Translations under genes and position numbers: made by a program | Source: Gammaproteobacteria bacterium | GTDB taxonomy: Bacteria > Pseudomonadota > Gammaproteobacteria > Ga0077536 | Direction: 5' to 3' | DNA length: 64,000 nt | Assembly (NCBI GenBank): GCA_963662545.2 | Contig: CAXXLL010000002.1 | Span: 32,001 to 96,000 of the forward strand | The notes under the pieces: model-generated | What the model was told of the DNA's origin: nothing | Database searches by the model: none | Seen by the model: only the letters and a program-made list of their open reading frames with translations | Shown here: positions 2,821-61,501 of the stretch, in pieces | Layout of the letters: each line of letters starts with the position of its first letter | How positions within the stretch are numbered: the first letter of the stretch is position 1

Positions 2821-4493
2821 ACGCGCGTGTTGCGGGCACTGCCCGAAAACATATTTTCACCATCAACGTCGAAGACTATTTTCAGGTCGGCGCCTTCAGT
2901 CAATTGATCCCGTATGCGCACTGGGAGCGGTTCGACGCGCGGATACAGCGCAATACAGAAACCACACTCGCGCTATTAGATGATACGGGCAACCGCGCAA
3001 CTTTTTTCGCGAGCGGCTGGATAGGAGAGAATTTCCCAAACATCCTAAGGTCGATCGTGGACCAAGGGCACGAAGTCGGCTGCCACGGGTATTACCAGCA
3101 ATCGATTCGAGAGATCGCGCCGGCCGCCTTCCGCGAGGATCTCGCGCGGTCCAAGCGGACCATCGAAGACGCAACCGGTCGGGCGGTACAGGGCTTTCGC
3201 GTGGGCCGGGGCTGGATCGGACCCGACGATTTGTGGGCCCTCGATGCATTGGTCGATCAGGGGTTTCGATTCGACTCCAGCGTCTGTCCGATCGGACGCC
3301 AGTTCGCAGATGATCACGATCGCTTTCTGCTGCACCCGCATCGGACCGCATCGAACATGCTGTGGGAGGTCCCGGTTTCTGCGACCCGTAAATTCGGTTG
3401 GGCGATTCCCTTCTCCGGCGGCAATTACGTCAGGCAACTACCACAATGGCCCGTGCGGGAAGCGGTGGCGCGCTGGGTCGAACGCCGACAGGCACCGCTA
3501 GTGATGTATTTCCACATTTGGGAACTCGATAGCGAACAGCCGAGCATTAGCGCGGCGAGTTGGCTGCAGCGCCTGCGCCACTACCGAAACCTGTCCGCAA
3601 TGCCGGCGCGCGTGCGCTATTTTCTCGAGCGGTACCCGTTTACGAGCATCAGTGATTATCTGAGTTTGGCCGACGAAGCGGCCACGAAACCCAGAGCTAC
3701 CGCCGCTAGCGTTGACGAGCGTGTTGCAAGCCCGAGCGAACCCGTCGAACGGGTCGATCTCACGGTCATCGTACCCTGTTACAACGAGGAAGCGTCCTTG
3801 GCCTACCTGCAGAAAACACTGTGGGCCTTCGGCGCGGCGAGCCGCGACTCGCTGGCTCTTCAATTCGTCTTCGTTGACGACGGCAGCGTGGATGCCACAT
3901 GGAATCGACTCGATGCGCTGTTCGGCCCCGAAAGCAACTGTAAATTGCTGCGGCATTCCGAAAATCGGGGGATCGCGGCCGCGATCCTGACAGGCGTCAA
4001 ACACAGCGAGACGAATCTCGTGGCGGTCCTCGACGCCGATTGCACTTTCGATCCGATGCAGCTCAGGGACATGGTGCCCATGATGAACGACGGGATCGCC
4101 GCCGTGAGCGCGTCACCGTTCCACGCGCGGGGCCGTGTCGCCAACGTGCCGGGATGGCGGCTTGGGCTCTCCAGGGGCGCCGCGTTTCTCTACCGTTGCG
4201 TTCTACATCACCAGTTTTCGAGTTACACGAGCTGTTTTCGAATCTATCGCCGCGCGGCCATCGCGGAGCTCAGCGTCTACAATCTCGGCTTCTGTGGTGT
4301 GGCTGAAATACTGGCGCGCCTTGATCTCGCCGGGTACCGGCTGGTGGAATGCCCGGCCGAGCTGCAGCTCCGGCTGCTCGGAGAATCGAAGATCAACCTC
4401 GCAAAAACCATCGTCGATCACGTGCAATTGATCGTCCGGCTGGCCGCTGCGCGCTGGCTGAAGATACCGCTGCCGACCGGATTCCGCCCGTAG
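2817..4493 (+). CDS. XrtA/PEP-CTERM-type polysaccharide deacetylase (DUF3473-like) fused to a GT2 glycosyltransferase
   Basis: N-half: VEDYFQV, GHEVGCHGY, GGNY, YFHIWE. C-half: IVPCYNEE, VDDGSVD, LDADC. ATGA overlap with wecB stop. Confidence 0.82.
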   Translation: MNARVAGTARKHIFTINVEDYFQVGAFSQLIPYAHWERFDARIQRNTETTLALLDDTGNRATFFASGWIGENFPNILRSIVDQGHEVGCHGYYQQSIREIAPAAFREDLARSKRTIEDATGRAVQGFRVGRGWIGPDDLWALDALVDQGFRFDSSVCPIGRQFADDHDRFLLHPHRTASNMLWEVPVSATRKFGWAIPFSGGNYVRQLPQWPVREAVARWVERRQAPLVMYFHIWELDSEQPSISAASWLQRLRHYRNLSAMPARVRYFLERYPFTSISDYLSLADEAATKPRATAASVDERVASPSEPVERVDLTVIVPCYNEEASLAYLQKTLWAFGAASRDSLALQFVFVDDGSVDATWNRLDALFGPESNCKLLRHSENRGIAAAILTGVKHSETNLVAVLDADCTFDPMQLRDMVPMMNDGIAAVSASPFHARGRVANVPGWRLGLSRGAAFLYRCVLHHQFSSYTSCFRIYRRAAIAELSVYNLGFCGVAEILARLDLAGYRLVECPAELQLRLLGESKINLAKTIVDHVQLIVRLAAARWLKIPLPTGFRP

Positions 4494-4496
4494 TCG

Positions 4497-5813
4497 ATGT
4501 CGCGTTCCGAGGAACGCCAAGAACGCTGGGCCGTCCTGGGCGGTGGCATGCTGGGTCTGAGCCTGGCGCTCAGGCTCGCCCAGCGCGGCAAACAAGTCAC
4601 CCTGATCGAAGCGGCGCCGACCATCGGCGGTTTGACGTCCTCGTGGCGGTACGGCGATATTTCTTGGGACCGGTTCTACCATGTCATCGAGGCATCGGAC
4701 CTGTCTTTGATCGAGCTGCTACGGGAGCTCGGCCTTGAAGACGAGATCGTCTGGGGCGTCACGAAGACCAATTTTTACGATGGCCAGGCACTCTACCCGC
4801 TGAACGACGTCTTCGATTACCTCAAACTGCCGGCCCTCGGCCTGATCGACAAGGCGCGTCTCGCGGCCAATATCCTATATGCCGCCTGGCTCAAGAATGG
4901 CGTCGTACTGGAAGCACAAAAAGCCGAAGACTGGCTGGTACGCTGGTCGGGGCGGCGCACCTTCGAAAAATTATGGCGGCCCTTGATGCGATCGAAATTG
5001 GGAGACAATTTCGAGAAGGCGTCGGCCGCCTACATCTGGTCGGTCATGCAGCGTTTCTACGGGGCGCGACAGGGCCGGCGCAAGACCGAATTATTCGGCT
5101 ACGTTAATGGCGGCTACGCGCACGTGGTTGCAACGATCCTGCAGCGGTTGGACGCACTTGGCGTCTGCATTGAAACGGGCGCGCCGGTCGAGCGCGTGAC
5201 GCAAGCCGGGGCGGGCGTTGAGGTTGCGACCGATGTGAATCTGCGTCGTTTCGACAAGGTGATCGCGACTTTTGCGTCGCCCATTGCGGCGCAGCTTTGC
5301 GAGGGTCTCGATACCGAGGAGCGCGCCCAGCACCAGCAAATCTTGTACCAAGGCGTAGTGTGCGCGTCGATGTTGTTGAAAAAACCGTTGGGGGGTGCTT
5401 ACCTGACCTACATCACAGACGATACGATCCCGTTTACTACCGTCATAGAAATGTCGTCCTTGACCGATCGCGATAAACTCGGCGGTTATCATCTGGTCTA
5501 CCTGCCGAAATATCTGCCGTCAGATGCACCGATGATGGAAGCCGATGACGCCGCGATCAAGGCGAATTTCATGGACGGACTCGCGGGAATGTTTCCCAAC
5601 ATCAGTGCATCGGACGTATTGGTCAGCTATGTCGCCCGGGCGCGATACGTTCTGGCGATCCCGACGTTGAACTACTCCGAAAAACTGCCGTCGATGGTGA
5701 CCGCGATCTCGAATCTGTATATTTGTAATTCGGCGCATATCGTCAATGCATCGCTGAGTGTGAACGAGTCGGTCGAACTGGCGAACCAGACGATCCGCCA
5801 ACTCCTGGATTGA
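4497..5813 (+). CDS. NAD(P)/FAD-dependent oxidoreductase (protoporphyrinogen oxidase/amine oxidase-like, glycan-cluster type)
   Basis: GGGMLG dinucleotide-binding motif, EA...IGG, DRFYHVI. Confidence 0.8.
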   Translation: MSRSEERQERWAVLGGGMLGLSLALRLAQRGKQVTLIEAAPTIGGLTSSWRYGDISWDRFYHVIEASDLSLIELLRELGLEDEIVWGVTKTNFYDGQALYPLNDVFDYLKLPALGLIDKARLAANILYAAWLKNGVVLEAQKAEDWLVRWSGRRTFEKLWRPLMRSKLGDNFEKASAAYIWSVMQRFYGARQGRRKTELFGYVNGGYAHVVATILQRLDALGVCIETGAPVERVTQAGAGVEVATDVNLRRFDKVIATFASPIAAQLCEGLDTEERAQHQQILYQGVVCASMLLKKPLGGAYLTYITDDTIPFTTVIEMSSLTDRDKLGGYHLVYLPKYLPSDAPMMEADDAAIKANFMDGLAGMFPNISASDVLVSYVARARYVLAIPTLNYSEKLPSMVTAISNLYICNSAHIVNASLSVNESVELANQTIRQLLD

Positions 5814-5816
5814 GCG

Positions 5817-6818
5817 GTGTCGGACATGGACAAACCGCCGGCGACGCTTTCCATCGACCTCGACGATCTGTGGTCCTACCTGCGGGCCCACGGTGACAGC
5901 GCCTGGGTCCAGTATCCGTCGTTTCTCGAACGGGCCGTGCCGCGTGTCTTCGAAGCTATCGACGACGATCTAGGTTTGACGTTCTTCATCGTGGGGCGCG
6001 ATGCCGAAAAAACTGAACTTCGCGGTCTATTCGCGGATGTTGGGGCGAGTCATCATGAAATTGGAAATCACTCCTACGATCATGCGTCGGATTTTCATCT
6101 CGCGTCCGCCGCGGCGGTGACCGAAGACATCGAACGTGCGGAAAGGTCGATTGAAGCAGCGACCGGCGTGCGCCCTCGAGGGTTCCGCGGACCTTCATTC
6201 CGATTGTCGAAAGCGATTCTCGAAGTGCTGATCAAACGCGGTTACGCTTACGACGCATCGATCTTTCCAACTTTCGTGGGACCGCTAGCGCGGACTTATC
6301 ACTTTGCGACCTCCAAGCTCGATCGTGCGGGGAAGGCTCGGCAGAAAGACCTTTTCGGATCGCTACGTGATGGTTTGCGGCCGCTGCGGCCGTTTCACTG
6401 GGACCTGGGTGCGGCGCGGTTGATCGAAATTCCCGTTACGACGATGCCGCTCTTGCGCATGCCCATACACATGACCTACGTCAACTTCATTGCGGATCTC
6501 TCGCCGCGACTTGCCGAAATCTGGTTTCGAGCCGGCCTCGCACTCTGCCACGCGCGCGGCATCGCGCCGTCGCTCTTATTGCACGCGACGGATTTCATCG
6601 GTGCCGGCGATGCGGGGCATCCGGCTTTCATGCCCGGAATGCGCCGTGCCAGTCGCGACAAGATCGCGTTGTTGAAGCGATTACTCGATGTGTTTCGCGA
6701 ACGGTTCAATGTCCTTTCGCTCGGCGAATTCGCCAAATTAGCGGAAAGCGGCAAACCCTTACCCATTATTCGACCGCGATTCGACGCTCGCGTGCATGCG
6801 CCAAGCCGTTACGACTAA
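5817..6818 (+). CDS. Polysaccharide deacetylase family protein
   Basis: SIDLDD, TFFIVG, HEIGNHSYDH, GFRGP, YDAS motifs. Confidence 0.85.
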   Translation: MSDMDKPPATLSIDLDDLWSYLRAHGDSAWVQYPSFLERAVPRVFEAIDDDLGLTFFIVGRDAEKTELRGLFADVGASHHEIGNHSYDHASDFHLASAAAVTEDIERAERSIEAATGVRPRGFRGPSFRLSKAILEVLIKRGYAYDASIFPTFVGPLARTYHFATSKLDRAGKARQKDLFGSLRDGLRPLRPFHWDLGAARLIEIPVTTMPLLRMPIHMTYVNFIADLSPRLAEIWFRAGLALCHARGIAPSLLLHATDFIGAGDAGHPAFMPGMRRASRDKIALLKRLLDVFRERFNVLSLGEFAKLAESGKPLPIIRPRFDARVHAPSRYD

Positions 6819-6836: not shown

Positions 6837-8407
6837 TCAGTCGCTCCACGATTTCGGTTTGGCGCCCCACCAGGTGCCTTGATGATCGTTAAACAGCCCT
6901 GTGTAATGGGTCTCGATGAATTCGAGTACCCCACCGCCCCGCAGCTTCATCATGTCGAGGTTTCGTTTGTCAACGTAAATGTAAGGCGCACGTGCCGCTT
7001 CGAGTTGCTCAGGCAATTTGAACCATTGCGACTGTAGAAAATAGCCCCAGGGCCAGCCGATGATCGATAAGGCCGATTCGCGGCCGGACAAATAGTAATA
7101 GAGTGGGTCGCCGAAGACGTAGATCTTGCCGGGACGCGCTCCTTCATCGACCAGGAACCGGGTGCTCCGGAATATACGCGGTAAAACGTGCTGATCCCCT
7201 GGTGAAAATCCTGCACCGTGCCTGGCTTTTTGACGAAGACTTCTATATACGCATTGGCTTTCTGTCCGGCGGGAACGGCCAGTGCGGCGATGCCGGGAAA
7301 AACGATCATCGCCGAGACGAGGTACGCACTCCAGGCTCGTTCGCGCTTCACGTTCATGATGAAATCGCACGCGACGTCCGCACCACGGATGCCGAGTATG
7401 CCGGCCGGCGTGAACAGGATCAGGAAGTGATAAGGCCACCAAGAAAACCGTTGAATATAGATGATCACGATGCCGACGAGGAACCAGGCGACGAGCACGC
7501 TGGTCAAGGGATCGCGCTCGTGCCGCCACCAGTGTGCCACGGCGAACGCAATGAACAGGGCCCAAGGTGCGAAATAGGTGCCGATGAAGATGAGTGATTC
7601 GCCGAGTCTGTAGTAAGGCGCGGGCGTAGACATGGCCAGCGCCTGCGGCGGGTATACGAAGGCGGTCCAGTAGAGCTCAAAGAGCGCGCCGTCGAGCCAG
7701 AATTTGAGCACCACTGCACCGAGCACGGCGCCGACCCCGACGCTCACCGGCAGCCAGACCCGCGCGGCAATGCTAAACCACTCGAGGCGCTTCGAAGCGC
7801 GGAGATGCACGGTTACAACCAGCCAGAAAGCGACGAAAAGCAGGGCGAACACGAGCTTGAATACGACCGCGATGCCTGCGCACAATCCCGATGCCGTAAA
7901 GGCCAGAATGAATCTGCCTGCCGATTTCGGAAACCGCGTCGCGAACCACGCGGACAGGAACATCGGTAATGCGACCAGAATTTCGAGCTGCGTGAGCTGC
8001 TGGGTTTCGACGCTGACGTAATAAAGGCCCACGACCGTCAGCGGCGGCAGCGCCGACAGCCAGGGATAAGTGAAATAGGTGCGCAGGCTTAAGGCCAGGA
8101 TCACGGAGAACACCGTCATCCAAATCATGTCGAGAAGGTGGATTCCGAATTCCGTATAGCCGAACGATTCGCCCGCGAGGAGGTAAAACCAGTAGAGCCC
8201 CGGCATTTTGTTGTCCCAGAAGTCGACGTAGAGCGTGCCGCCCTGGGCAAGGGTTTTCGCGCCCATCATGGTTGCGATCTGATCGCTGACGAAGGGGAGT
8301 TGCAGGTTGAGCGCGCCGAATGCAAGCACCAGCACGAGCGCAATGGCGTACCAGGCCCATTCGCAGAGCCTGTTTCGTCCTCCGGCGAGCTGTTGGCTGG
8401 CTTTCAT
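6837..8407 (-). pseudogene. GT-C fold (ArnT/GT39-like) membrane glycosyltransferase, frameshifted near 7180
   Basis: Multi-TM protein with LYVDFWDNKMPG; the C-terminus (IYVFGDPLYYYLSGR...) continues in another frame to 6837. May be a sequencing indel. Confidence 0.7.
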
Positions 8408-20836: not shown

Positions 20837-21059
20837 ACGCGATCGTAGACAGTGAGCAACAGGCTGCCGAACGCGAGGCCGACCAGCATGTAGCGAAAGT
20901 TCCAGCGCAGGAATTGGGTCGACGGGATCCCAAAACGGCCCTGCAGCGCCAGCGTCGCACCCGAGAACGGGGACGCGCCGAGCGCGACCGACCAGGCCAT
21001 GAGCGCCATCATAGCGATCAGATCCGGATGCGAGACCACGGGCGGAAACAGGCTAGCTA

Positions 21060-22756
21060 GTGTGCATCCCTAAACGCGATGCGGTTGAAATAAAAAGGAA
21101 AATTTGTCGCTTAAGGGATCGAAACCTCCGGTGGGTCGTGATCTAATGGAACTTCAAACCTCTGATTTTCCACACAATCATCGACACCACAGGAGGGGGA
21201 ATGCGTCAGAAACGCACGGCCCAAGCGAGTATATACGAGCTGTTTGCTGACCATGACCTGGGGCGAGAGCTGCAGGGCATGTCCGAGTGGCTCGATGCTC
21301 ACCCCAAGGTCCTCACGCCGGTCATGAACGATCTGTGTCGGCGGGGTTTGAAGCCCACCGGTCGACGCGGACTGTCGGCGGAGTCGGTGCTGCGCTGCGC
21401 GGTGCTCAAGCAGCACCGGCAATTGAGTTACGAGGAGCTGGCCTTTCACCTGCAGGACTCGGCGAGCTTTCAGGCCTTCGCCCGGTTGCCGGGTAATGAA
21501 CGTCCGAAGAAGTCTGCCTTACAGCGGGTGGTCTCGGCGATCCAGGTATCGACGTGGGAGTCTATTCATCGCGCCCTGCTGGCGACGGCGAAAGAGACGC
21601 GCATTGAGCCGGCACAGCGTGTACGGATTGATAGCACGGTAACGGACAGTGCCATCCACGCGCCGAGCGACAGTCATCTGCTGTGGGATGGCGTGCGTGT
21701 TGTGGTTCGTCTGCTCGCACAGGCGCGCGAGTTGCCTGGCGCGCCGGAGTTGTGCTTCGTGAACCACACTCGATTGGCGAAGAAGCGTGCGCGGGCGCTG
21801 TGGTATGCGCGTGGTGCGAAGCAACGCCAACGTCTGTATCGCGATTTGATTGGGGCGACGCGTTCAACCTTGGAAGCGGTAGCGAGGGTACGTGAGCAGC
21901 TGCTGAGCCCGGGCGTCACCGGCGTTGAACTGCCGGACTGGCTAGCGCAGGTAGCGCACTACGAAACACTTGTTCTGCAGGTGATTTCGCAAACTGAGCG
22001 GCGGGTGTTCGGCGGTGAGAAGGTCCCCGCGAGCGAGAAGTGCGTGAGCTTGTTCGAGCCGCATACCGACATCATCATAAAGGGTGCGCGCGACGTTCAG
22101 TACGGACACAAAATCAATCTGGCTTCGGGGCGCAGTGGCCTCATCCTCGACGTGGTCATCGAGCGAGGCAATCCGGTCGATAGTCAGCGCTTCATGCCGA
22201 TGCTCGAACGGCATCGAACACACTACGGGACGATGCCACGACAGGTCGCCGCCGATGGCGGCTATGCGAGCCTCGACAATCTCCGGGCGGCGAAAGCAGA
22301 AGGCATCGAAGACGTTGCCTTCCACAAGAAGCGCGGGCTCGCGATCGCCGACATGGTCAAGAGTCAGTGGGTCTATCGACGCTTGCGCAACTTCCGCGCC
22401 GGCATCGAGGCCGGTATCTCCTGCCTGAAGCGTGCATACGGATTGGCACGTTGCACCTGGAAGAGCCTGCCGCACTTCGAAGCCTACGTGTGGTCTTCTG
22501 TGGTCGCCTACAACCTCAGCCTGCTCGCGCGCTATCAACTCGAATAGCGACGTTCACTCGCACTAACTGACCTCCTCGATATCGTCGAACGGGCGACTTT
22601 GGGTTGCAGCGCTCTGCGGCCGGCGAACGTACTCACAATTACGCTCGAAGAGCCCTTCGACCCCCACCGAACCGCCGCTACCGCTCCAACAACCTACTTT
22701 CAACACCTCGATTTCTCCGTGCCCATCGAAGAAAATGCCTGTTTATGGACGGACAC
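21060..22756 (+). mobile_element. ISNCY-like insertion sequence, copy 1 (1697 bp)
   Basis: Ends GTGTGCATCCCTAAAC / GTGTCCGTCCATAAAC; 6-bp target duplication TAGCTA at 21054-21059 and 22757-22762; second copy at 59519-61215. Confidence 0.9.
21201..22547 (+). CDS. DDE transposase (ISNCY/IS5-like)
   Basis: RIDSTV, AADGGY, RAGIEAGISCLKR. Confidence 0.9.
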   Translation: MRQKRTAQASIYELFADHDLGRELQGMSEWLDAHPKVLTPVMNDLCRRGLKPTGRRGLSAESVLRCAVLKQHRQLSYEELAFHLQDSASFQAFARLPGNERPKKSALQRVVSAIQVSTWESIHRALLATAKETRIEPAQRVRIDSTVTDSAIHAPSDSHLLWDGVRVVVRLLAQARELPGAPELCFVNHTRLAKKRARALWYARGAKQRQRLYRDLIGATRSTLEAVARVREQLLSPGVTGVELPDWLAQVAHYETLVLQVISQTERRVFGGEKVPASEKCVSLFEPHTDIIIKGARDVQYGHKINLASGRSGLILDVVIERGNPVDSQRFMPMLERHRTHYGTMPRQVAADGGYASLDNLRAAKAEGIEDVAFHKKRGLAIADMVKSQWVYRRLRNFRAGIEAGISCLKRAYGLARCTWKSLPHFEAYVWSSVVAYNLSLLARYQLE

Positions 22757-23892
22757 TAGCTAAGCTTGCAATGCTGACCACCGGATGCACACCGACCAGG
22801 GACAGGCCGGCCAGTACGCACATCAGACCGATGGCTTCAGCCGCGTTTGAGGGGTCGACGACGAAGGCGAAATCCATCACGCGCACGGTGGCCGCGATCC
22901 CGGCCGACAACATCGCAGCGCCTAGAAATAGCGCGAATTCAGCGCCCATGCCGGACAGTTCGAAGGTCAGATGATGGCGCAGGAGATCCCGTGTCTGGCC
23001 GGGAGGTTCGCGCACACGCATCAGAAAAAAGCAGCCCGCGGCAGCGATCACGATGATCGTGAGAATGGACAACGAGGCCGGGATTGCGTGCAGCGCGAAT
23101 ACCAGCACAGCCAGCAACAGGGGCACGGTCAGCGCTTCGGCGTGGATCGGAAAGCCGACGAATTCATCGATCCCGGCGTCGGCTTTGAGGTCCCAGGCGC
23201 TGTAGGCGATCAGAAAGGCGGCGAGTAAGAAGTTATGGCTGGCGACCGCGAAGACGTCCACATTCGGTACGTACAGCACCACCACGCCCATCGACGCAAA
23301 AAATGGCGACCAACAGGCGCCGGCGACGAACGCACGGCTGACGACTTTGGCCTGTAAGGGCGTCAGAGAGCCGTCGCGCGAGATGCGTTGGCCGACGATG
23401 TAAGTCGCAGAGATATTGATAACAGCGCCGAGCAGATGCGTGGCCAGCAGCGTTTGCCCGATAGCGCCTGTACCGCGAGGCAACGATTCCCCAACGTGTG
23501 CGCCGGTGCGGGTAACGAGGCGCAGAAACGTAACCATCGCGAGCATTGCCAGGATCGCCTGGTTGCCTTCGATCAATTGCGGCCACCAGCCGAAATCCCC
23601 CGAGGTACTGGCCAAGAGGATTCCGGCGAGACCGGCCAGACACATGATCGCGACCTGGATCCGCTGGAAGTTGACCACGCCCGCGAACAAAAGGGCGCCG
23701 ACTGCCCAAGCCAGAAGACCAGCCGGCCAGGCGGGAAAGGCATCGCCTGCGATGCCGTGTATGACAGACAGCGCGATCATCAGGCAGATGAGCGCACCTG
23801 CGAGGCGCGCCCGCGGGCGCGCCGTTAACGGTGTGCTCACCGAACCGAACGATCTTGGCTGATGCGCGCCGTCCATGGAGCACTGCTGATGT

Positions 23893-38348: not shown

Positions 38349-38584
38349 TTCCCTGGCCGCCCGCTTGCGGACTCCTACTTCTATCAAATACTCCGTGCCT
38401 GCCATCCATGGCGGTACGTTACGGGCTTTGTTTGAACCCAGGCTGGAGTAGTAGCGAATGTTGGTGCCTGCCATCCCTGGCGCTACGCAACCGTCTTCGT
38501 TCGACTCCAGCCCGGCCATTCATGGCCGGGCGCTCGCCGGGCGAAAGCCACGTTAAGTGGCTTTCTCCTTACTCCGGCTCACCC
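38349..38584. repeat. REP/MITE-like cluster of short palindromes between convergent genes
   Basis: GTGCCTGCCATCC(A/C)TGGCG at 38395 and 38464; CCCGGCCATTCATGGCCGGG at 38511; hairpin GAAAGCCAC...GTGGCTTTC at 38543. Confidence 0.6.
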
Positions 38585-40581: not shown

Positions 40582-40657
<76 letters not shown>

Positions 40658-40770: not shown

Positions 40771-40831
40771 TGACGGTAACTTTGACGTTAACACTATCAC
40801 TCGCCGCCAAAACGGCAGGGAGTTACCGTCA
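40771..40831. promoter_or_regulatory. Putative integrase arm-type binding repeats
   Basis: TGACGGTAAC (40771), TGACGTTAAC (40783) and inverted GTTACCGTCA (40822) touching the integrase start codon. Confidence 0.5.
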
Positions 40832-42055
40832 TGTTAGGGAAACTCACCGACACCGGAATTAAAAACGCCAAGCCGAGAGCCAAGCCCTATAAGCTGGCTG
40901 ACGGCGGGGGCATGTATTTACTCGTCACGACGAAGGGCCAGAAGTGGTGGCGGCTGGACTACCGACTCCACGGCAAGCGCAAGACTTTAAGCCTAGGCGT
41001 TTACCCTGACGTGAAGTTGAAGAAAGCCCGCAAGCGGCGGGAAGCCGCACGCGAAAGCATAGACGACGGCTTGGACCCCTCAGACATACGCAAAGAAGAA
41101 AAAGCCGCCCGCGAGGGCGCGGACACCTTCAAGGCCGTAGCCGAAGAATGGTTAGCCAAGTGGAAGCCCGACAAAGCTCCTCACTACACGGATGAAGGTG
41201 CAAGGGCGGCTCAGGAATGACGTGTACCCGTGGCTGGGCGATTCCACCATTAACGACATACAGCCAAAGGACGTGCTGCGCGTCTTGCGGCGAGTAGAGG
41301 ACCGGGGTGCAGCCGAGGCAGGCCACCGCATTCGTCAGCATTGCAGCGCCGTCTTTCGCTATGCCGTGGCGTCCGGGTACGCCGACCGTGACCCGACTCA
41401 GGACTTGCGGGGGGCCTTGCTACCAACAAAGCCGAAGCATTACGCCAGCATTACGGACGCGAAGAAAATTGGCGAGCTTCTACGCGCCATCGACGCCTAC
41501 AAAGGGCAGTTGGTGACTCGCTGCGCCCTCACCCTTACCGCGTTAACTTTCGTCCGTCCCGGCGAATTGAGAAAAGCTGAATGGGCCGAATTCGACTTAG
41601 AAAATGCAGAGTGGCGCATACCGGCCGAGAAAATGAAAATGGACAGGCCACACATTGTCCCCTTCTCTGAGCAAGCCCTAGACGTGCTGAAAGAAATACA
41701 GCCGCTCACGAGTGACGGACGCTTCGTGTTTCCTGGCATTCGCAGCCAACAGCGTCCCATGTCCGAAAATACGGTAACGGCGGCACTGCGTGGCATGGGT
41801 TATACGGGCGACGAAATCACAGCGCATGGCTTCCGCAGCATGGCGTCTACCCGTCTGAACGAAATGGGCTGGAATAGAGACGCAATTGAAAGACAACTAG
41901 CCCACATTGAAGGTAACGCAGTGCGGGCCGCGTACAACTACGCCGAGCACCTGGAAGAAAGGCGGCGCATGATGCAAGCGTGGGCCGACTATTTGGACGG
42001 TCTGCGAAACGACGCTGACGTAACACCCATTCGCGGAAAAGGAAAAGCCGCCTAA
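40831..42055 (+). pseudogene. P4-type tyrosine integrase, frameshifted near 41190
   Basis: Arm-binding N-terminus (KPYKLADGGG, WRLDYR, LSLGVYP) in 40831-41220; catalytic part (VRPGELR, HGFR, QLAH, AYNY) in 41192-42055; one extra G. Confidence 0.85.
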
Positions 42056-42154: not shown

Positions 42155-42559
42155 ATGGGACAGCCAGCTGAAGACGAAATGGAGAGAAGCCCCCGCGTTG
42201 CCGCGAAGCACTTGGAGGATGTTGTTCTTCATGGGAAGAGTATGAAGGCCCCAGGCACATATACGAACACCGTGGCAACGGCTTATTACCAGCATTTCAT
42301 GAAATGGCTGAAAGATATGAGAGAGGGACAAAAACAAGCCACGAAGGCGAGCGCGGAGGCGCGCAAGTGCAAGAAGGTCGCTCGGGAGAAGTTATGGCGG
42401 GAAATGACCGAAGTTCAACTGAAAGAACACTTTGAATGGGACACTAAGGACATAGTGAAATATATTCAAAATCAAGGGGACGATAAAAAGTCCCAGACTA
42501 TCGCTCGCATCGTCGCACCACTTGTCAAAAAGCATAGAAAAGACCAATTAAACGCCTAA
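42155..42559 (+). CDS. Hypothetical protein between integrase and AlpA
   Basis: 134-aa ORF with AGGAG RBS, in the position where satellite-like islands often carry a small gene. Confidence 0.6.
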   Translation: MGQPAEDEMERSPRVAAKHLEDVVLHGKSMKAPGTYTNTVATAYYQHFMKWLKDMREGQKQATKASAEARKCKKVAREKLWREMTEVQLKEHFEWDTKDIVKYIQNQGDDKKSQTIARIVAPLVKKHRKDQLNA

Positions 42560-42658
42560 CTTTGCGGTGCTGCCTACGCTGCACCGCAAAAGCACTCCAT
42601 GTCTGCGCCTTCATGTGTTTCTAATGGCAATTCATTAGAAACCAAGAAGGCCATTAAG

Positions 42659-42874
42659 ATGCAAAAAGCAACCAGCAGACTGCCGGAGCCCGGCTACTCC
42701 CGCATTCGTGACATCCTGCACGTTATTCCCGTCAGCCGCAGTCGGTGGTATGCCGCCGTATCCGACGGCCGCATAAAGCCCCCGACAAAACTTGGCGAGC
42801 GCACCGCCGCGTGGCCAAATGAGTACCTTAACGAATTACTCACACGCCTCGAGGCGGGCGAGCGCATTCTCTAG
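42659..42874 (+). CDS. AlpA-family regulator / recombination directionality factor
   Basis: IPVSRSRWYAAVSDGRIKPPTKLGERTAAW resembles the AlpA HTH pattern. Confidence 0.8.
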   Translation: MQKATSRLPEPGYSRIRDILHVIPVSRSRWYAAVSDGRIKPPTKLGERTAAWPNEYLNELLTRLEAGERIL

Positions 42875-42933
42875 AGTGGCTCCGAATGGAAGCACTAATG
42901 CGCGGAACCGACTGGCCCGCGCGCGGCTAAGCA

Positions 42934-43061
42934 GCCGCCGCTCTTAGTGGTCGCAGCACTGAACGCTATTGAGTGACCGCTTCCGAGGGGATTGCAGACG
43001 TAATTCTAACTTGTGATGCACTACCGCGATTAGGCCGCTGACGACCCATAGGAGATATTCG
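42934..43061 (+). repeat. Composite intergenic repeat, copy A
   Basis: GCCGCCG at 42934; GACCGCTT-N8-ATTGCAGAC at 42975; TGCACT.CCGCGAT.AGGC; GACCC at 43043; ungapped match to copies B and C. Confidence 0.8.
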
Positions 43062-43129
43062 GAACTGCGCTATCCTCGACGTATTTATTCATTAGAGCCG
43101 ATTATGGGTGCTACAAAAGGAGTGAATTA

Positions 43130-43987
43130 ATGAACCGTTGGCTAATCGCGTGTGTGCTGCTGTGCTCTTGGATCAGCGTCCCGGCTGAGGAAACGAACGA
43201 ACCGGTGCTCGATGCACCCGAGAATGCCTACTGGCACGCCGGTTCGCAGTCCTGGTTCGTCTCCAGCCTAGGCGGTGGCTTGTCGCTTGAGGTGGATGGT
43301 TATGGCTGGGTTTCCCGTTTCGATGCCGCAGGCAAAATCGTTGAACCGCGATGGGTTGAAAACCTCGATGCGCCAACTGGAATGGGGGCAATGGGCGACC
43401 GGCTCTACGTTGCCGACCGCGGGCGCGTGCACGTCATCGACATCCCGTCGGCGCAAGTTGTCGCGACCATCCCGCTCCCCGGCGCGGAGTTTGTCAATGA
43501 TGTCGCCGTGGGTCCTGATGGCGCAGTCTATGTTTCGGATACCGCGACCAACCGGATTTATCGCATCGTCAACGGCGCTGCGTCGATATGGCTCGAATCG
43601 GAAGAACTGCAGAGCCCGAATGGGTTATGGCTGGACGGTGACACCTTGGTGGTCGCCGCGTGGGGACCGATGACTGACATCGAGACGTTCGCGACGAAGC
43701 ATCTGGGCACGCTGTTGCGGGTGGATTTAGACTCGAAGGCCGTGCAGCCGGTCGGAGTGGGAGCGCCTATCGCCAATTTCGATGGCGTGGTCACGGTAGG
43801 CAATTATTACTACGCCACCGATTGGACAGGGGGACGCCTGCTACGAATCGACCGCGAGGGTCGCGTCACCGTCGTTATGTCAGGCTTCAATCAGCTTGCT
43901 GACCTTGGCTATGACCCCGTGCGGGGGATCCTCGGCCTGCCCGTTATGAGTGATAACCGCTTCATCCTGCTGTTCCTTGATCGATGA
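43130..43987 (+). CDS. Exported SMP-30/gluconolactonase-like beta-propeller protein
   Basis: Signal peptide; LDAPE, LDAPTGM, FVNDVAV, YVSDT, SPNGL, NFDGV; RBS AAAGGAG. Confidence 0.82.
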   Translation: MNRWLIACVLLCSWISVPAEETNEPVLDAPENAYWHAGSQSWFVSSLGGGLSLEVDGYGWVSRFDAAGKIVEPRWVENLDAPTGMGAMGDRLYVADRGRVHVIDIPSAQVVATIPLPGAEFVNDVAVGPDGAVYVSDTATNRIYRIVNGAASIWLESEELQSPNGLWLDGDTLVVAAWGPMTDIETFATKHLGTLLRVDLDSKAVQPVGVGAPIANFDGVVTVGNYYYATDWTGGRLLRIDREGRVTVVMSGFNQLADLGYDPVRGILGLPVMSDNRFILLFLDR

Positions 43988-44070
43988 GGGCAACGTCTGA
44001 AGAAGAGTCAGGACATTCGGAAACACGCAACGGTATTTTGAGTACTCAAACGTTCGCTTTTTGGCCGACT

Positions 44071-44358
44071 GCCGCCGCCCTCCCTCAGTACTGCTTTGGA
44101 AGCAGCGGGAGGACCGCTTACGAGCGCATTGCAGACGTAATGCTTAGTAGTGCTGCACTGTCGCGATCAGGCCGTTGACGACCTATTCTGTTGAAAAAGT
44201 CCGATTCGCCGTCGGTCGCGACGTGTGCAGAAAAACCGACCGCGTAGGATCGCCTGTAAACGACGATCGGCACTCCGGGAACGGTTTAGCGACCCCCAAA
44301 TATATCGAAATCGCATGCGGTACGACTTTTTCAACACAATAGACCCTTTGCGGTCGCT
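44071..44358 (+). repeat. Composite intergenic repeat, copy B (interrupted by a MITE)
   Basis: GCCGCCG at 44071; GACCGCTT-N8-ATTGCAGAC at 44112; GACC at 44180. Confidence 0.8.
44184..44341. mobile_element. 158-bp MITE (type A), copy 1
   Basis: Inverted ends TATTCTGTTGAAAAAGTC / TATTGTGTTGAAAAAGTC (17/18 match); 4-bp duplication GACC. Confidence 0.85.
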
Positions 44359-44504
44359 CGAAGTAATTCGCGATGGGCGTGGGAATTACCACATCGCCGT
44401 CTCAGTCCTGTCCCTACACTGACTTCCAAGAATCACATGGAACCCCCAATGCGGGCCGCGAAACGACCGTCGAGCGCCCCGGCAATGACTTGAAAGAGAG
44501 GACC

Positions 44505-44618
44505 ATGAGCACATTCAACGACCGGATCTCTGCCGCCACCACCACGCTCACAACGATAGCCCTCATCGCCCTTATAAGCTTCGGGGTAAGCGCGAGTCTG
44601 ACGCCGCTTGTCATCTGA
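44505..44618 (+). CDS. Small (37-aa) single-TM protein
   Basis: RBS GAGAGGA; MSTFNDRISAATTTLTTIALIALISFGVSASLTPLVI; downstream hairpin CCAAGGCA...TGCCTTGG at 44647-44668. Confidence 0.5.
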   Translation: MSTFNDRISAATTTLTTIALIALISFGVSASLTPLVI

Positions 44619-44696
44619 ACACAAGCTCCGCAACGAATATTTAGGGCCAAGGCAAAAACTTGCCTTGGTCACGTTCACGTCTGCTTCTCGCCGAGA

Positions 44697-44986
44697 GCCG
44701 CCGCTCATCGCGGTCGCACCGCATAGCGCAACTCGACGACCGCTTATGAGTGTATTGCAGACCTACCGCTTAACAGTGCTGCACTGCCGCGATGAGGCTG
44801 CTACCGACCTATTCTGTTGAAAAAGTCCGATTCGCCGTCGGTCGCGACGTGTGCAGAAAAACCGACCGCGTAGGATCGCCTGTAAGCGACGATCGGCACT
44901 CCGGGAATGGTTTAGCGACCCCCAAATATATCGAAATCGTATGCGGTACGACTTTTTCAACACAATAGACCCTTTGCGGACATTCG
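44697..44986 (+). repeat. Composite intergenic repeat, copy C (interrupted by a MITE)
   Basis: GCCGCCG at 44697; GACCGCTT-N8-ATTGCAGAC at 44738; GACC at 44806. Confidence 0.8.
44810..44967. mobile_element. 158-bp MITE (type A), copy 2
   Basis: Near-identical to 44184-44341 (3 substitutions seen by eye); GACC duplication. Confidence 0.85.
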
Positions 44987-45027
44987 CAATAACCGACCGC
45001 GCCTTGAAAACATCACTGCGTCCTGCT

Positions 45028-45300
45028 TTAAAGAAATTGAGCAACACGTTTGATATGCCCATCTGCGCCAAGCTCCTCGAAGAGCCGGTGAGCCTCACGC
45101 ATTTCGTCGTCGGCCGTCCACTCGCAATCGTAAGCCTCGGCGAAGGCCGCGCGGCATTCGTGCAGGAAGGGTTGATAAACGATCGCACCGGTCTCGTTTA
45201 TGATTGCTCCGTTTCGTCGAGCACCTCGCGCGCACCCTTGTGATCGATGTCTCCGATTCGCACGCGCGCGAGCGCCAACCAGGGTTGCAGCGTCCATTTC
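45028..45300 (-). pseudogene. Degraded C-terminal remnant of a TPR/ATPase-cyclase-type protein
   Basis: ...INETGAIVYQPFLHECRAAFAEA...EMREAHRLFEELGADGHIKRV* resembles C-termini of such proteins; upstream frame is broken. Confidence 0.35.
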
Positions 45301-45449
45301 AAGCCGCGCGGGCGGGAAAACGCCACCGCGTCTTCGGCGCACCGCCGCGCCTCACCGCCTTTCCCGCATGCCAGGTTCGCGGTTGCCAGGAACCCGAGCG
45401 CTGCGCCCCGGAACCAGCCACTTGCCCGAGTTTCGTCCGCGACGCGCAG

Positions 45450-45780
45450 GCACTCGCAGATGCCATTTCTAACCTACAGCAAGAAACTCGTCGTCAAGCG
45501 GTGACGATCACGCCAGTTCAACTGGCTGGCAACGAAATCTATGAGATCCTCAAGAAACGCCTCATCGATGAGATGCCTGACGAGCGGGTGCTCTCCGATG
45601 TAGCTCGAGAGTATGTCCAGCAGATCAAAAAAGCCGAAGATGGTGGCTACATCACGGCAACCGGCATTGAGCAAATCGCTGCGCAGGTTCGAGAAACTTA
45701 CCCGTTCCATCCGTCCTTCAAACACCTAGTGGCACTTTTCAAGGAAAGCAAAGGATTTAGGCAGACGGGCGGATTGATGC
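45450..45780 (+). pseudogene. Internal fragment of a DUF499-type ATPase gene
   Basis: QETRRQAVTITPVQLAGNEIYEILKKRL...TYPFHPSFKHLVALFKE..GFRQT.GLM; no credible start or end. Confidence 0.6.
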
Positions 45781-45984
45781 ATCGTAGACGCCTTCGTTTC
45801 GATGTCGTCTAAGTATCCGCGCTTTTTGAATTGGCTTGAAGTTCTTGAGTATTGGAAAGAGAGATCTGGTGACCGAGCAGGGGGCAGAAAACAGAAAGAC
45901 AGTAAAAGGACGGAAGAGGTGACGGAGGGAACAATTTTAATCCCGCCGTCGCCCTTAATAATGCCTGCTCGCAGCCTGCTATTT

Positions 45985-53854: not shown

Positions 53855-55085
53855 CTGCGGATTCAACCAGTCGATGCAACATCTAATCTCTAGTCATCGA
53901 GAGGAGGATGTTGAACATGAAGTACAGACAGAGGACTTACTACAGCGAAACTGACAAGGCTCTAATGTGGGATCGCTGGCAGAAAGGCGAGTCTCTGCAG
54001 ACCATCGCTCAGCTTTTTAATCGAAATCATTCATCGATAGCTGGCGTGTTGTCGAGAACTGGGGGCATCCGTCCTCCTCAGCGAACCCGTTCAAGATCCG
54101 CACTAAGCTTGGCGGAGCGCGAGGACATCTCGCGGGGTGTTGTCACCGGCCATTCTGTTCGTTCGATCGCAGCAACGCTCGAGCGGTCGCCTTCTACGGT
54201 GAGCCGAGAGATCGCCCGTAACGGTGGCCGACAATGTTACCGCGCGAGCGAAGCTGACTTAGCCGCCTGGGATCGGGCGCCTCGTGCCAAGACCTGTAAA
54301 CTGGTACAGAACCGCGACCTGGCCCGCATCGTGGCGAGCAAACTCAAGAAGTTCTGGTCACCCGCGCAGATTGCTGGCTGGTTGAAGCAAACGTATCCGC
54401 ACGATGAGAACATGCAGGTGTCGCACGAGACCCTCTATCGCAGTCTATTCATTCAAGCCCGTGGCGCCTTGAAGAAAACGCTGCTACAGCACCTCAGGCG
54501 AACACGTGCGATGCGTCGTTCGCGCCATCACACACAGAAGACCGATGATCACGGCAGGATTAGTAACGCAATCTCGATCAGCGAGCGTCCGCCATCGGTG
54601 GAAGACCGGGCCGTGCCAGGGCATTGGGAAGGTGATCTGATCTTCGGTTCGAACAACAGCCAGATCGCGACCTTGGTCGAGCGCCATACGCGTTACGTCA
54701 TGATGGCAAAGGTCAACGGCAAGGACACTGAGACGGTGATAAACGCGCTAATCAAACACGCACACAAGTTACCAAACGAACTCTACAAATCACTCACCTG
54801 GGATCGTGGCAAGGAAATGGCTGATCACGAGCGCTTTACGTTAGCGACCGATATCAAGGTGTACTTCTGTGATCCTCAAAACCCTTGGCAACGAGGCTCA
54901 AACGAAAACACGAACGGTCTTCTCAGGCAGTCCTTCCCGAAGGGAACGGACCTGTCGGTTCATTCGCAAGCCAAGCTCAATACGGTCGCACGGCAACTCA
55001 ACGAACGACCTAGAAAAACGCTAGACTTTGAAACACCGGCGCAACGTTTTAGCCAATGTGTTGCATCGACTGGTTGAATCCGCAG
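53855..55085 (+). mobile_element. IS30 family insertion sequence
   Basis: Perfect 27-bp inverted ends CTGCGGATTCAACCAGTCGATGCAACA; apparent 2-bp GG duplication. Confidence 0.9.
53908..55077 (+). CDS. IS30 family transposase
   Basis: GHWEGDL, TLVER, TWDRGKEM, PWQRGSNENTNGLLRQ, RPRKTL. Confidence 0.93.
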   Translation: MLNMKYRQRTYYSETDKALMWDRWQKGESLQTIAQLFNRNHSSIAGVLSRTGGIRPPQRTRSRSALSLAEREDISRGVVTGHSVRSIAATLERSPSTVSREIARNGGRQCYRASEADLAAWDRAPRAKTCKLVQNRDLARIVASKLKKFWSPAQIAGWLKQTYPHDENMQVSHETLYRSLFIQARGALKKTLLQHLRRTRAMRRSRHHTQKTDDHGRISNAISISERPPSVEDRAVPGHWEGDLIFGSNNSQIATLVERHTRYVMMAKVNGKDTETVINALIKHAHKLPNELYKSLTWDRGKEMADHERFTLATDIKVYFCDPQNPWQRGSNENTNGLLRQSFPKGTDLSVHSQAKLNTVARQLNERPRKTLDFETPAQRFSQCVASTG

Positions 55086-55118
55086 GGCTAAACGGACGTG
55101 GGCTTAATCGACAGCTTC

Positions 55119-55472
55119 TTATTCCTCTTCCCCACCCTCCGGCCATAGTGCCCTACCAAATATTGCCTTCGTCACAGCATTCCCGATCAGCACAAACAAG
55201 AACATCGTCGTTGCTTCTATCGGCACTGCTTCGGACCCTCTTGCACATATCCAATAGCTGAGTGTAATTCCGTACAGGTTTCCGATAGCTACGCAGGCGC
55301 ACAGATACGAATTGAAGCGCACATCCATTAAGATTGCCCCTACGGCTGTCAGAATGAACGGTACCGCGCTTCCTATATGGTGGTGCGCTAGTGGGACCAT
55401 CGTGACGGGTCGCGTGGGCGTGGCCGTGATTTCAGTGTTCGTGATTGATGGCCGTATTGACGAATCGAACAT
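55119..55472 (-). CDS. Possible small membrane protein or remnant
   Basis: About three hydrophobic segments; no recognised motif. Confidence 0.3.
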   Translation of the reverse strand: MFDSSIRPSITNTEITATPTRPVTMVPLAHHHIGSAVPFILTAVGAILMDVRFNSYLCACVAIGNLYGITLSYWICARGSEAVPIEATTMFLFVLIGNAVTKAIFGRALWPEGGEEE

Positions 55473-59419: not shown

Positions 59420-59518
59420 GGTCGTCAGCGTGGTAGTACGGTGCCAGATATTACGGGGACAAATTACTTAATCATGCCAAGCCGGTCCGTTCGGTATGAG
59501 CCGCGTGGCAATTAGTTA

Positions 59519-61215
59519 GTGTCCGTCCATAAACAGGCATTTTCTTCGATGGGCACGGAGAAATCGAGGTGTTGAAAGTAGGTTGTTGGAGCGGTAGCGG
59601 CGGTTCGGTGGGGGTCGAAGGGCTCTTCGAGCGTAATTGTGAGTACGTTCGCCGGCCGCAGAGCGCTGCAACCCAAAGTCGCCCGTTCGACGATATCGAG
59701 GAGGTCAGTTAGTGCGAGTGAACGTCGCTATTCGAGTTGATAGCGCGCGAGCAGGCTGAGGTTGTAGGCGACCACAGAAGACCACACGTAGGCTTCGAAG
59801 TGCGGCAGGCTCTTCCAGGTGCAACGTGCCAATCCGTATGCACGCTTCAGGCAGGAGATACCGGCCTCGATGCCGGCGCGGAAGTTGCGCAAGCGTCGAT
59901 AGACCCACTGACTCTTGACCATGTCGGCGATCGCGAGCCCGCGCTTCTTGTGGAAGGCAACGTCTTCGATGCCTTCTGCTTTCGCCGCCCGGAGATTGTC
60001 GAGGCTCGCATAGCCGCCATCGGCGGCGACCTGTCGTGGCATCGTCCCGTAGTGTGTTCGATGCCGTTCGAGCATCGGCATGAAGCGCTGACTATCGACC
60101 GGATTGCCTCGCTCGATGACCACGTCGAGGATGAGGCCACTGCGCCCCGAAGCCAGATTGATTTTGTGTCCGTACTGAACGTCGCGCGCACCCTTTATGA
60201 TGATGTCGGTATGCGGCTCGAACAAGCTCACGCACTTCTCGCTCGCGGGGACCTTCTCACCGCCGAACACCCGCCGCTCAGTTTGCGAAATCACCTGCAG
60301 AACAAGTGTTTCGTAGTGCGCTACCTGCGCTAGCCAGTCCGGCAGTTCAACGCCGGTGACGCCCGGGCTCAGCAGCTGCTCACGTACCCTCGCTACCGCT
60401 TCCAAGGTTGAACGCGTCGCCCCAATCAAATCGCGATACAGACGTTGGCGTTGCTTCGCACCACGCGCATACCACAGCGCCCGCGCACGCTTCTTCGCCA
60501 ATCGAGTGTGGTTCACGAAGCACAACTCCGGCGCGCCAGGCAACTCGCGCGCCTGTGCGAGCAGACGAACCACAACACGCACGCCATCCCACAGCAGATG
60601 ACTGTCGCTCGGCGCGTGGATGGCACTGTCCGTTACCGTGCTATCAATCCGTACACGCTGTGCCGGCTCAATGCGCGTCTCTTTCGCCGTCGCCAGCAGG
60701 GCGCGATGAATAGACTCCCACGTCGATACCTGGATCGCCGAGACCACCCGCTGTAAGGCAGACTTCTTCGGACGTTCATTACCCGGCAACCGGGCGAAGG
60801 CCTGAAAGCTCGCCGAGTCCTGCAGGTGAAAGGCCAGCTCCTCGTAACTCAATTGCCGGTGCTGCTTGAGCACCGCGCAGCGCAGCACCGACTCCGCCGA
60901 CAGTCCGCGTCGACCGGTGGGCTTCAAACCCCGCCGACACAGATCGTTCATGACCGGCGTGAGGACCTTGGGGTGAGCATCGAGCCACTCGGACATGCCC
61001 TGCAGCTCTCGCCCCAGGTCATGGTCAGCAAACAGCTCGTATATACTCGCTTGGGCCGTGCGTTTCTGACGCATTCCCCCTCCTGTGGTGTCGATGATTG
61101 TGTGGAAAATCAGAGGTTTGAAGTTCCATTAGATCACGACCCACCGGAGGTTTCGATCCCTTAAGCGACAAATTTTCCTTTTTATTTCAACCGCATCGCG
61201 TTTAGGGATGCACAC
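59519..61215 (-). mobile_element. ISNCY-like insertion sequence, copy 2 (no target duplication)
   Basis: Reverse complement of 21060-22756, same length; flanks TAGTTA / TAGCAA differ. Confidence 0.9.
59728..61074 (-). CDS. DDE transposase (ISNCY/IS5-like)
   Basis: Translation identical to 21201-22547. Confidence 0.9.
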   Translation of the reverse strand: MRQKRTAQASIYELFADHDLGRELQGMSEWLDAHPKVLTPVMNDLCRRGLKPTGRRGLSAESVLRCAVLKQHRQLSYEELAFHLQDSASFQAFARLPGNERPKKSALQRVVSAIQVSTWESIHRALLATAKETRIEPAQRVRIDSTVTDSAIHAPSDSHLLWDGVRVVVRLLAQARELPGAPELCFVNHTRLAKKRARALWYARGAKQRQRLYRDLIGATRSTLEAVARVREQLLSPGVTGVELPDWLAQVAHYETLVLQVISQTERRVFGGEKVPASEKCVSLFEPHTDIIIKGARDVQYGHKINLASGRSGLILDVVIERGNPVDSQRFMPMLERHRTHYGTMPRQVAADGGYASLDNLRAAKAEGIEDVAFHKKRGLAIADMVKSQWVYRRLRNFRAGIEAGISCLKRAYGLARCTWKSLPHFEAYVWSSVVAYNLSLLARYQLE

Positions 61216-61501
61216 TAGCAAGGGAATCGAAGGCAAACGTGATGAACTCGTGCACAGCGCACGCGAGAAGATCACCAAAGACGAGGCCCGCACCGTAATC
61301 ATCGCGCGTCTGCGGCTACTTCTAACGGACACCTACGTCGCTTATTTACGTGCCGACCAACGAAAATGCGTAAAGTGCATCGAAAATCTGTGGGATAAGT
61401 ACGCAGTGACCGCAACTAGCATCGAAGCAGAACGGGACGCTGCATCAGAGCGGTTACAGACCTTCTTGGTAGATTTGGGCTACGACGTTGCCCAATCATG
61501 A
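61216..61501 (+). pseudogene. hsdM: 3' remnant of type I R-M methyltransferase gene
   Basis: ENLWDKYAV....IE.ERD....L..FL..LGY resembles the C-terminus of long HsdM proteins; overlaps the hsdS start; 5' part replaced by the IS. Confidence 0.7.

Follow-up and report, generated by a model that had tools for sequence, protein, structure and literature searches.

A composite DNA repeat of ~150–155 nt stands at successive gene boundaries in a 64,000-nt stretch of a Gammaproteobacteria bacterium (assembly GCA_963662545.2, contig CAXXLL010000002.1, positions 32,001 to 96,000; the whole stretch is hereafter called the window). The repeat defines a family, with nine copies found in four genomes, one array in each, and all copies of an array lie in direct orientation. 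A copy at each boundary, fixed orientation, strict clustering and enclosed genes that differ between intervals together follow a module-boundary logic, and the copies carry no attC, tRNA or Rfam features. We read them, at somewhat less than even confidence, as res-like composite recombination sites that would bound single-gene modules and be acted on by a recombinase in trans. The wider proposal is held more loosely: they may belong to a cassette system distinct from integrons, with ~150-bp multi-subsite sites, a dedicated recombinase encoded elsewhere, genes moved singly, and arrays at tRNA-linked or other hot spots in environmental Proteobacteria.

A repeat search placed the three window copies (A, B and C) in register without a single gap over 117 nt, at 42933–43049, 44070–44186 and 44696–44812. 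Start-to-start spacing is 1137 nt from A to B and 626 nt from B to C, and identity to copy A is 70% for B and 72% for C, an agreement far above chance level. A first-pass annotation made from the letters alone had reported three diverged gapless copies with invariant internal spacings, and every motif position proved exact: GCCGCCG (starting at 42934 in copy A) lies 41 bp before GACCGCTT-N8-ATTGCAGAC (42975, 44112 and 44738), which in turn lies 68 bp before GACC (43043, 44180 and 44806). The TGCACT, CGCGAT and AGGC blocks show no variation among the window copies in the alignment. The ~125-bp composite described at that time was genuine, but the conserved unit is longer: it gains ~20 nt on the left, with a GTCCGC..GGCCGA block, and on the right it continues for ~15 nt past GACC. 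Copy A is uninterrupted and spans 42914–43068 on the + strand, around the strict core given above (nhmmer, 42918–43071, E = 5.6e-37). Copies B and C, also on the + strand, are each interrupted by a MITE (miniature inverted-repeat transposable element); the part to the left of the insert covers 44050–44183 in B, where it ends with GACC (nhmmer, 44039–44185, E = 2.8e-38), and 44677–44809 in C (nhmmer, 44666–44811, E = 7.1e-38). Against a hidden Markov model (HMM) of the nine family members, the window copies score E = 6e-37 to 3e-38, and nhmmer found no further match in the 64-kb window beyond these three.

The wider family was sought by a pattern scan for the 17 fixed bases of GACCGCTT-N8-ATTGCAGAC in 185,579 species-representative genomes. 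The scan returned 70 loci, close to the ~70 that we presume, as an estimate, chance would give for 17 fixed bases, and many of them are orthologous coding sequences. Profile searches of these loci disclosed true family members in three further assemblies; seven of the nine copies match the search pattern. One contig of a Pseudomonadota metagenome-assembled genome (MAG; loci L006/L009) carries copies a, b and c at 4933–5097, 6389–6553 and 7384–7547. They are arranged in the order tRNA-SeC (4104–4199), small open reading frame (ORF), copy a, alpha/beta hydrolase, copy b, pilin-domain gene on the opposite strand, copy c, FAD monooxygenase and contig end. A 3.9-kb contig binned as Chloroflexota (L041) has copies at 1091–1256 and 1956–2123, in the order copy a (its left part shortened), YbaK/tRNA_edit gene, copy b and the 3′ end of a convergent STAND/TPR gene. 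A Gammaproteobacteria MAG (L038) holds a single copy (179–346), placed 187 nt from the contig start and followed by IS3-/IS4-type elements and then a truncated STAND/TPR homolog. The regulator-like STAND/TPR gene (2129–3856 in L041; 3458–4738, minus strand, in L038) is 67% identical in amino acids between the two loci. It is convergent to the last repeat copy in both and is cut by the IS4-type insertion in L038.

Each of the five intervals between neighboring copies (1137, 626, 1456, 1001 and about 865 nt) contains a single gene, and no gene family recurs among them. In the window the enclosed genes are an SGL/SMP-30-like protein and a 37-codon ORF, with gene debris, including a DUF499 fragment, following copy C, just as the first-pass annotation had seen. 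Its description of a non-integron, cassette-like array therefore holds: the repeat stands at successive gene boundaries with single unrelated genes in other genomes as well. The copies are not scattered, they match no known insertion sequence (IS) end, repetitive extragenic palindrome (REP) or noncoding RNA, and the flanking genes differ between genomes. The direct orientation is kept despite the reversed pilin-domain gene in L009 and the convergent genes around the second copy of L041. This independence from gene direction suggests a boundary marker rather than an element of 5′ or 3′ untranslated regions.

Core identity between genomes reaches 85% (L009a–L041b), 83% (L009a and window copy B) and 82% (L038–L041b), with unrelated flanks, while identity within arrays is 66–87%. 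Since copies are at least as similar across genomes as within arrays and their flanks are unrelated, they appear to be old constrained paralogs or horizontally exchanged sequences rather than products of recent local duplication. Simple local duplication of one intergenic segment within the island had to be considered, because copies B and C share 245–265 nt at 90–93%. Most of that shared stretch consists of the two MITEs, which are 98.1% identical (155/158), whereas the host repeat cores of B and C agree at only 80.6% (58/72). The DNA past the second copy is unrelated to that past the first, and the family sits at other loci with other genes in three further genomes. Local duplication is accordingly most improbable.

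The MITE in copy B occupies 44184–44341 (158 bp, + strand), flanked by a GACC duplication at 44180–44183 and 44342–44345, with the rest of copy B running to about 44360. A second 158-bp MITE stands at the same repeat position in copy C (44810–44967, + strand), between GACC at 44806–44809 and 44968–44971, and the remainder of copy C runs to about 44987. Because the two MITEs are far more alike than the cores that host them, they represent separate entries into the same position of two different copies, and these insertions explain the long 90–93% repeat of B and C without any local duplication. Their 18-nt inverted ends occur in the window only at these two copies. Elements with the same ends are carried by two plasmids: in Azotobacter chroococcum the element is MITE-sized (L071, about 2952–3115), and in Pseudomonas aeruginosa it is an IS annotated as IS1182-family, with its transposase gene (L072, about 3516–5124). 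Four-base duplications are found throughout, GACC twice in the window and GGCC in L071 and L072, so that all four insertions show a 4-bp GRCC duplication centered in a loosely palindromic sequence of the GTCCGC...GCGGAC type or a related one. By their inverted ends, target duplications and junctions, the inserts are a target-specific IS1182-type MITE. The IS1182-family insertion in L072 lies between intI1 and the integron end.

From left to right, the element comprises a moderately conserved left block, a ~30-nt variable stretch and a ~95-nt core with 36 invariant columns. It parses into three 24–25-nt units of the form GNCCGC-N12/13-GCNGAC at fixed spacing. CGACCC at the center of the last unit is identical in eight of nine copies, and conservation falls sharply just to its right. 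A perfect 13-nt palindrome, CAGTGCTGCACTG, is present in four of the nine copies and occurs elsewhere in the window no more often than expected by chance. The ~25-bp imperfect hairpin subunits proposed earlier can thus be drawn as three loosely palindromic units of 24–25 nt, but their arms are complementary at 1–5 of 6 positions and show no excess folding. The fold energies of the 5′ part and of the core did not stand out from those of dinucleotide-shuffled sequence, whichever strand and whichever parameter set (RNA or DNA) was used (mean z, −0.45 for + strand RNA and about 0 to +0.4 in the other cases). RNAalifold predicted an imperfect + strand core hairpin with unpaired bases, in which none of 16 predicted pairs is compensated. 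Stable hairpins are thus unsupported by the folding tests. A coding remnant was also set aside: the frames of the ORFs across B and C differ relative to the repeat, L009b has 1-nt insertions, and stops fall in most frames. As judged from the alignment, conservation of primary sequence and not of structure points to protein recognition of duplex DNA over recognition of a folded single strand.

The same data bear on whether the repeat could act as a transcribed RNA element, such as a processing site, a small RNA or a regulatory leader, along a long island transcript. Among 144 cells of the + strand hairpin, 118 are Watson–Crick, 19 are G-T and one is A-C; this excess of G-T over A-C favors the + strand, and five of six enclosed or following genes lie on it. 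A single invariant column pair supplies nine of the 19 G-T cells, however, and the mean z-scores near zero, like the uncompensated pairs, speak against a selected fold. Rfam gave no match to any of the nine copies (E ≤ 10 for the window; E ≤ 1 for L009, L038 and L041), and no sigma-70-like site was found at 42500–45500. Moreover, L009c lies between divergent genes and L041b between convergent ones, which defeats any single transcript model. An RNA role is therefore distinctly unlikely.

The main rival concerns bacterial interspersed mosaic elements (BIMEs), which are built of palindromic units and fixed linker motifs. The repeat could be a low-copy, BIME-like intergenic mosaic of REP-type units that rides on acquired DNA and has a structural or transcript role, with no gene capture; the roles envisaged include termination, mRNA stabilization and binding of nucleoid proteins or gyrase. 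Its 24–25-nt units, joined to other fixed motifs at invariant spacing, resemble the way BIMEs are composed (compare PMC3333891). A solitary unit of like form lies outside the array in L041 (127–150), like-form palindromes occur in the Azotobacter plasmid and in a betaproteobacterial MAG, and terminator-like hairpins precede some copies. The IS-derived MITE lands exactly mid-unit, as on a REP-like IS target; targeting of REPs by IS elements is documented in an excerpt of PMC1525189. Several observations do not fit such a mosaic. In the sequence scanned the repeat is not dispersed: all three window copies fall within 1.9 kb of 64 kb, each other genome shows one locus, and single units are not enriched elsewhere in the window. 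No REP-associated tyrosine (RAYT/Y1) transposase was detected among the 62 window ORFs scanned, folding is no better than that of shuffled sequence, and orientation ignores the direction of adjacent genes. Compared with BIMEs and repeats of the ERIC type (enterobacterial repetitive intergenic consensus), the family is similar in being intergenic and IS-targeted and in parsing, if loosely, into palindromic units with linker motifs, and different in having one to three copies per genome at one locus, no RAYT seen and units that form poor hairpins. We consider a BIME-like mosaic possible, if doubtful.

No further copy of the repeat was found in the other contigs of the three carrier assemblies covered by the pattern scan. 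A near-consensus copy had no match at E ≤ 1 in a plasmid collection, and in a phage collection the sole matches were three of 28 nt that fall within a tail gene of a Bordetella phage and are put down to chance. In a 5.8-billion protein set, queried with the open frame across L009c, no called ORF over the repeat was found in the length range searched. A keyword (not sequence) search, in titles and full text, of the literature on integron-like cassettes, tRNA islands, tycheposons, REPs/BIMEs and IS targeting did not find the repeat described.

Two other elements recovered by the pattern scan were weighed as possible relatives and set aside; outside the pattern the similarity of both is slight, and nhmmer found either nothing or the pattern region only. 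In an AT-rich gammaproteobacterial MAG (L027, 4225–8178; L053, 3847–5750, minus strand), a dense, co-oriented 29-nt GC-rich hairpin repeat with an 11-bp stem and a 7-nt loop recurs every 0.4–1.8 kb between ordinary genes and also flanks two glyoxalase-family genes. A Gallionellaceae MAG carries three near-identical, dispersed copies of a 115-nt element (L069, about 4950–5065; L056/L068, about 4960–5075, minus strand) that has no Rfam match; it shares the pattern and is absent from the nhmmer matches at E ≤ 1. One of these copies lies ~160 nt upstream of a tyrosine recombinase of 204 aa that is complete (L069, 5222–5836), beside a STAND-like gene.

Alternatively, the family might be transposable but non-autonomous, a MITE-like or hairpin-ended element hopping locally between island genes, with the enclosed genes as bystanders. 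A length of ~150 nt is typical of such elements, the copies are intergenic in an IS-rich window, the left block and right end are loosely similar when inverted, and the Gallionellaceae element that contains the 17-base pattern is dispersed and near-identical, although nhmmer with the family model did not recover it at E ≤ 1. The copies themselves behave otherwise. None of the seven uninterrupted ones has a target-site duplication, clear terminal inverted repeats are lacking, and the copies are old (about 65–87% identity), all co-oriented and present exactly once per boundary. We therefore regard local transposition as unlikely.

Under the recombination-site reading, each ~150-bp repeat would be a composite protein-binding DNA site with several 24–25-bp units and the 13-bp palindrome. 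A recombinase supplied in trans, probably not the neighboring P4-type integrase, would join two direct copies, and the exchange would release or insert a circle with one gene and one site. Genes could in this way be gained, lost and exchanged singly. The crossover would most likely fall at the invariant CGACC(C) in the center of the last unit, where similarity between copies stops abruptly. We infer protein binding, recombination at such a crossover point and mobility of the enclosed genes from the architecture of the arrays.

A multi-subsite site with fixed spacing has a precedent in Tn3 res. An excerpt of a study of these sites describes 114 bp in which three dimer-binding subsites keep fixed distances, and reports efficient recombination only between direct repeats in cis (10.1101/2021.12.07.471667). 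By described architecture alone, the repeat resembles res in size (about 114–150 bp), in its loosely palindromic, dimer-sized units and in their invariant spacing. It differs in forming rows of several copies with intervening genes, where a transposon has a single site, and in that no resolvase or Tn3-family ends lie nearby; neither the window nor the flanks of L009, L038 and L041 yielded a resolvase or a Tn3-type transposase.

Similarity to integrons is organizational. In integrons and in clusters of attC sites lacking an integrase (CALINs), as here, co-oriented sites (~60–150 bp there) bound single, unrelated and mostly co-oriented genes, which the repeat does in five intervals of three arrays. 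Within-array divergence of the sites is likewise as large as that between genomes, arrays occur without an adjacent integrase, and the sites are targeted by other mobile elements, in this case the IS1182-type MITE. A CALIN requires no IntI. Nevertheless the repeats are not attC sites: a regular-expression search on both strands of the four arrays found no RYYYAAC...GTTRRRY pair 40–130 nt apart (shuffle means, 0.06–0.35), and no IntI was identified among the 62 window ORFs with Pfam and/or NCBIfam, in agreement with the initial view that this is not an integron. Unlike attC, where structure is conserved and sequence is free, the repeat has long primary-sequence conservation and no significant single-strand hairpin, and its intergenic spacers are longer than those of typical cassettes.

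Two further systems offer partial parallels. The pdif sites of Acinetobacter plasmids are 28-bp XerC–XerD sites that flank modules in alternating inverted orientation. They share with the proposed modules the bounding of single accessory genes by sites of a recombinase encoded elsewhere, and they differ from the repeat, which is ~150 bp long with all copies direct. Tycheposon-type or accretion arrays consist of tandem tRNA-anchored elements bounded by partial tRNA repeats. Like them, the arrays lie 3′ of a tRNA at two of four loci, adjoin a tyrosine integrase at one, and hold small cargo between direct repeats; unlike them, the repeat is not a tRNA fragment and none of the units carries its own integrase. 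Neither ARAGORN nor the tRNA model of Rfam calls anything in any copy, which removes tRNA-derived att repeats as candidates. The tRNA anchoring assumed in the first-pass annotation applies in part: an array is placed just 3′ of tRNA-Lys in the window and of tRNA-SeC in L009, both with the same relative orientation, which counts toward the recombination-site reading, but the other two arrays (L041 and L038) adjoin the STAND/TPR gene instead.

Several points weigh against the recombination-site reading. No intact recombinase lies beside any of the four arrays in the flanks at hand. An integrase is present at one locus of four and is frameshifted there; the flanks of L009, L041 and L038 contain none, L038 having only IS3/IS4-type transposases, and tblastn found no protein, recombinase or other, common to the four loci. 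No gene was seen in two contexts, and neither an empty site nor a circle junction was observed. Palindromy of the units is weak, as described above, and the 7–8-nt center of the middle unit varies between neighboring copies; at that unit this would be an obstacle for a tyrosine recombinase that depends on homology. With nine copies, ascertained with one exact pattern, the sample is small, and short MAG fragments make up three of the four loci. Sequence similarity further suggests that some carriers may be relatives: besides the 67% identical gene shared by L041 and L038, positions 194–427 of L041 match 55085–55319 of the window over 235 nt at 76%, with a coding-like substitution pattern. The matching window stretch lies inside a 117-aa ORF without a family, beside an IS30 transposase. 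In favor of the reading, a contig end lies no more than about 1.7 kb from the array at all three MAG loci, as a region variable within populations would show, although repeats also produce such ends simply through assembly.

It is improbable that the adjacent P4-type integrase acts on the repeat, because it is broken, it is absent at the other three loci, and the tRNA-derived site expected for it is unrelated to the repeat: no 11-mer is shared between the repeat and the tRNA-Lys 3′ end. The link to integrase–AlpA drawn in the first-pass annotation is thus not upheld. Its suggestion that the repeats are sites of gene capture is likewise unsupported: neither a gene in two contexts nor an excised circle nor a co-occurring recombinase was found in the data covered.

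The island around the window array is anchored at tRNA-Lys(CTT) (40582–40657, + strand; ARAGORN; Rfam tRNA, 73 bits), the last of a Pro-Arg-His-Lys tRNA cluster. The integrase follows at 40831–42055 (+ strand; Pfam) as two overlapping frames, 40831–41220 with Arm-DNA-bind_3 and 41192–42055 with Phage_int_M (from profile position 23) and Phage_integrase. Between this broken gene and a 134-aa ORF (42155–42559, + strand; no Pfam or NCBIfam family) sits an int-alpA RNA motif (RF02996; 42070–42135, + strand; 45.8 bits, with the gathering score at 35.8; E = 3e-7). Next comes a divergent AlpA-like small DNA-binding protein (42659–42874, + strand), whose match to Phage_AlpA (PF05930) is weak (E = 0.012; 15.9 bits, cut-off 21) and whose assignment is supported by its location 3′ of the int-alpA RNA. 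The neighboring integrase–AlpA pair is therefore present as described in being P4-type, but its integrase is split and its AlpA match falls below the cut-off. Copy A starts 40 nt past the AlpA-like stop codon. Cargo gene 1 encodes a 285-aa SGL/SMP-30-like beta-propeller protein with a hydrophobic N-terminus (43130–43987, + strand; Pfam SGL, E = 5.9e-6; NHL/PQQ_2 traces), and cargo 2 is the 37-codon ORF (44505–44618, + strand), which has a hydrophobic C-terminal half in translation and no Pfam match. The gene debris after copy C spans 44990–45812 by Pfam and the ORF list, and its DUF499 fragment (45204–45812) covers profile positions 160–245 of 1024. Past the debris lie cupin, TetR and ISL3 transposase genes. 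No repeat of the tRNA-Lys 3′ end that could mark the far island end (attR) was found at k = 11.

IS elements in the window belong to IS4, ISNCY (two), IS630, ISL3 and IS30. The two ISNCY-family copies (21053–22763 and 59512–61222; 1.71 kb, 99.9% identical) are inverted and enclose 36.7 kb, tRNA cluster and island included, that might form an inversion or composite unit. A 147-aa ORF without a family, upstream of the tRNA cluster, has at its start two 52-nt direct repeats (38395–38446 and 38464–38515) that are 69 nt apart and share 77% identity. At the L009 tRNA, positions 3551–3614 are an 86% partial copy of the 5′ part of tRNA-SeC (4100–4163), ~550 nt upstream of it, and a 39-nt stretch is locally duplicated (4413–4451 and 4548–4586); both are signs of past rearrangement at that tRNA.

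To our knowledge, integrons are the only well-understood system that builds arrays from single promoterless genes; pdif modules, which are plasmid-borne, add a second example. If the repeats are indeed recombination sites, the single-gene modules that they bound would be of a third kind, one with long conserved sites and no IntI, and cassette-style gene accretion would have evolved more than once. The repeat would then serve as a handle for flexible genes in metagenomes and point to an undiscovered recombinase–site pair. Should it instead be a BIME-like mosaic confined to islands, it would be a marker of recently acquired DNA and a natural target of IS1182-type elements.

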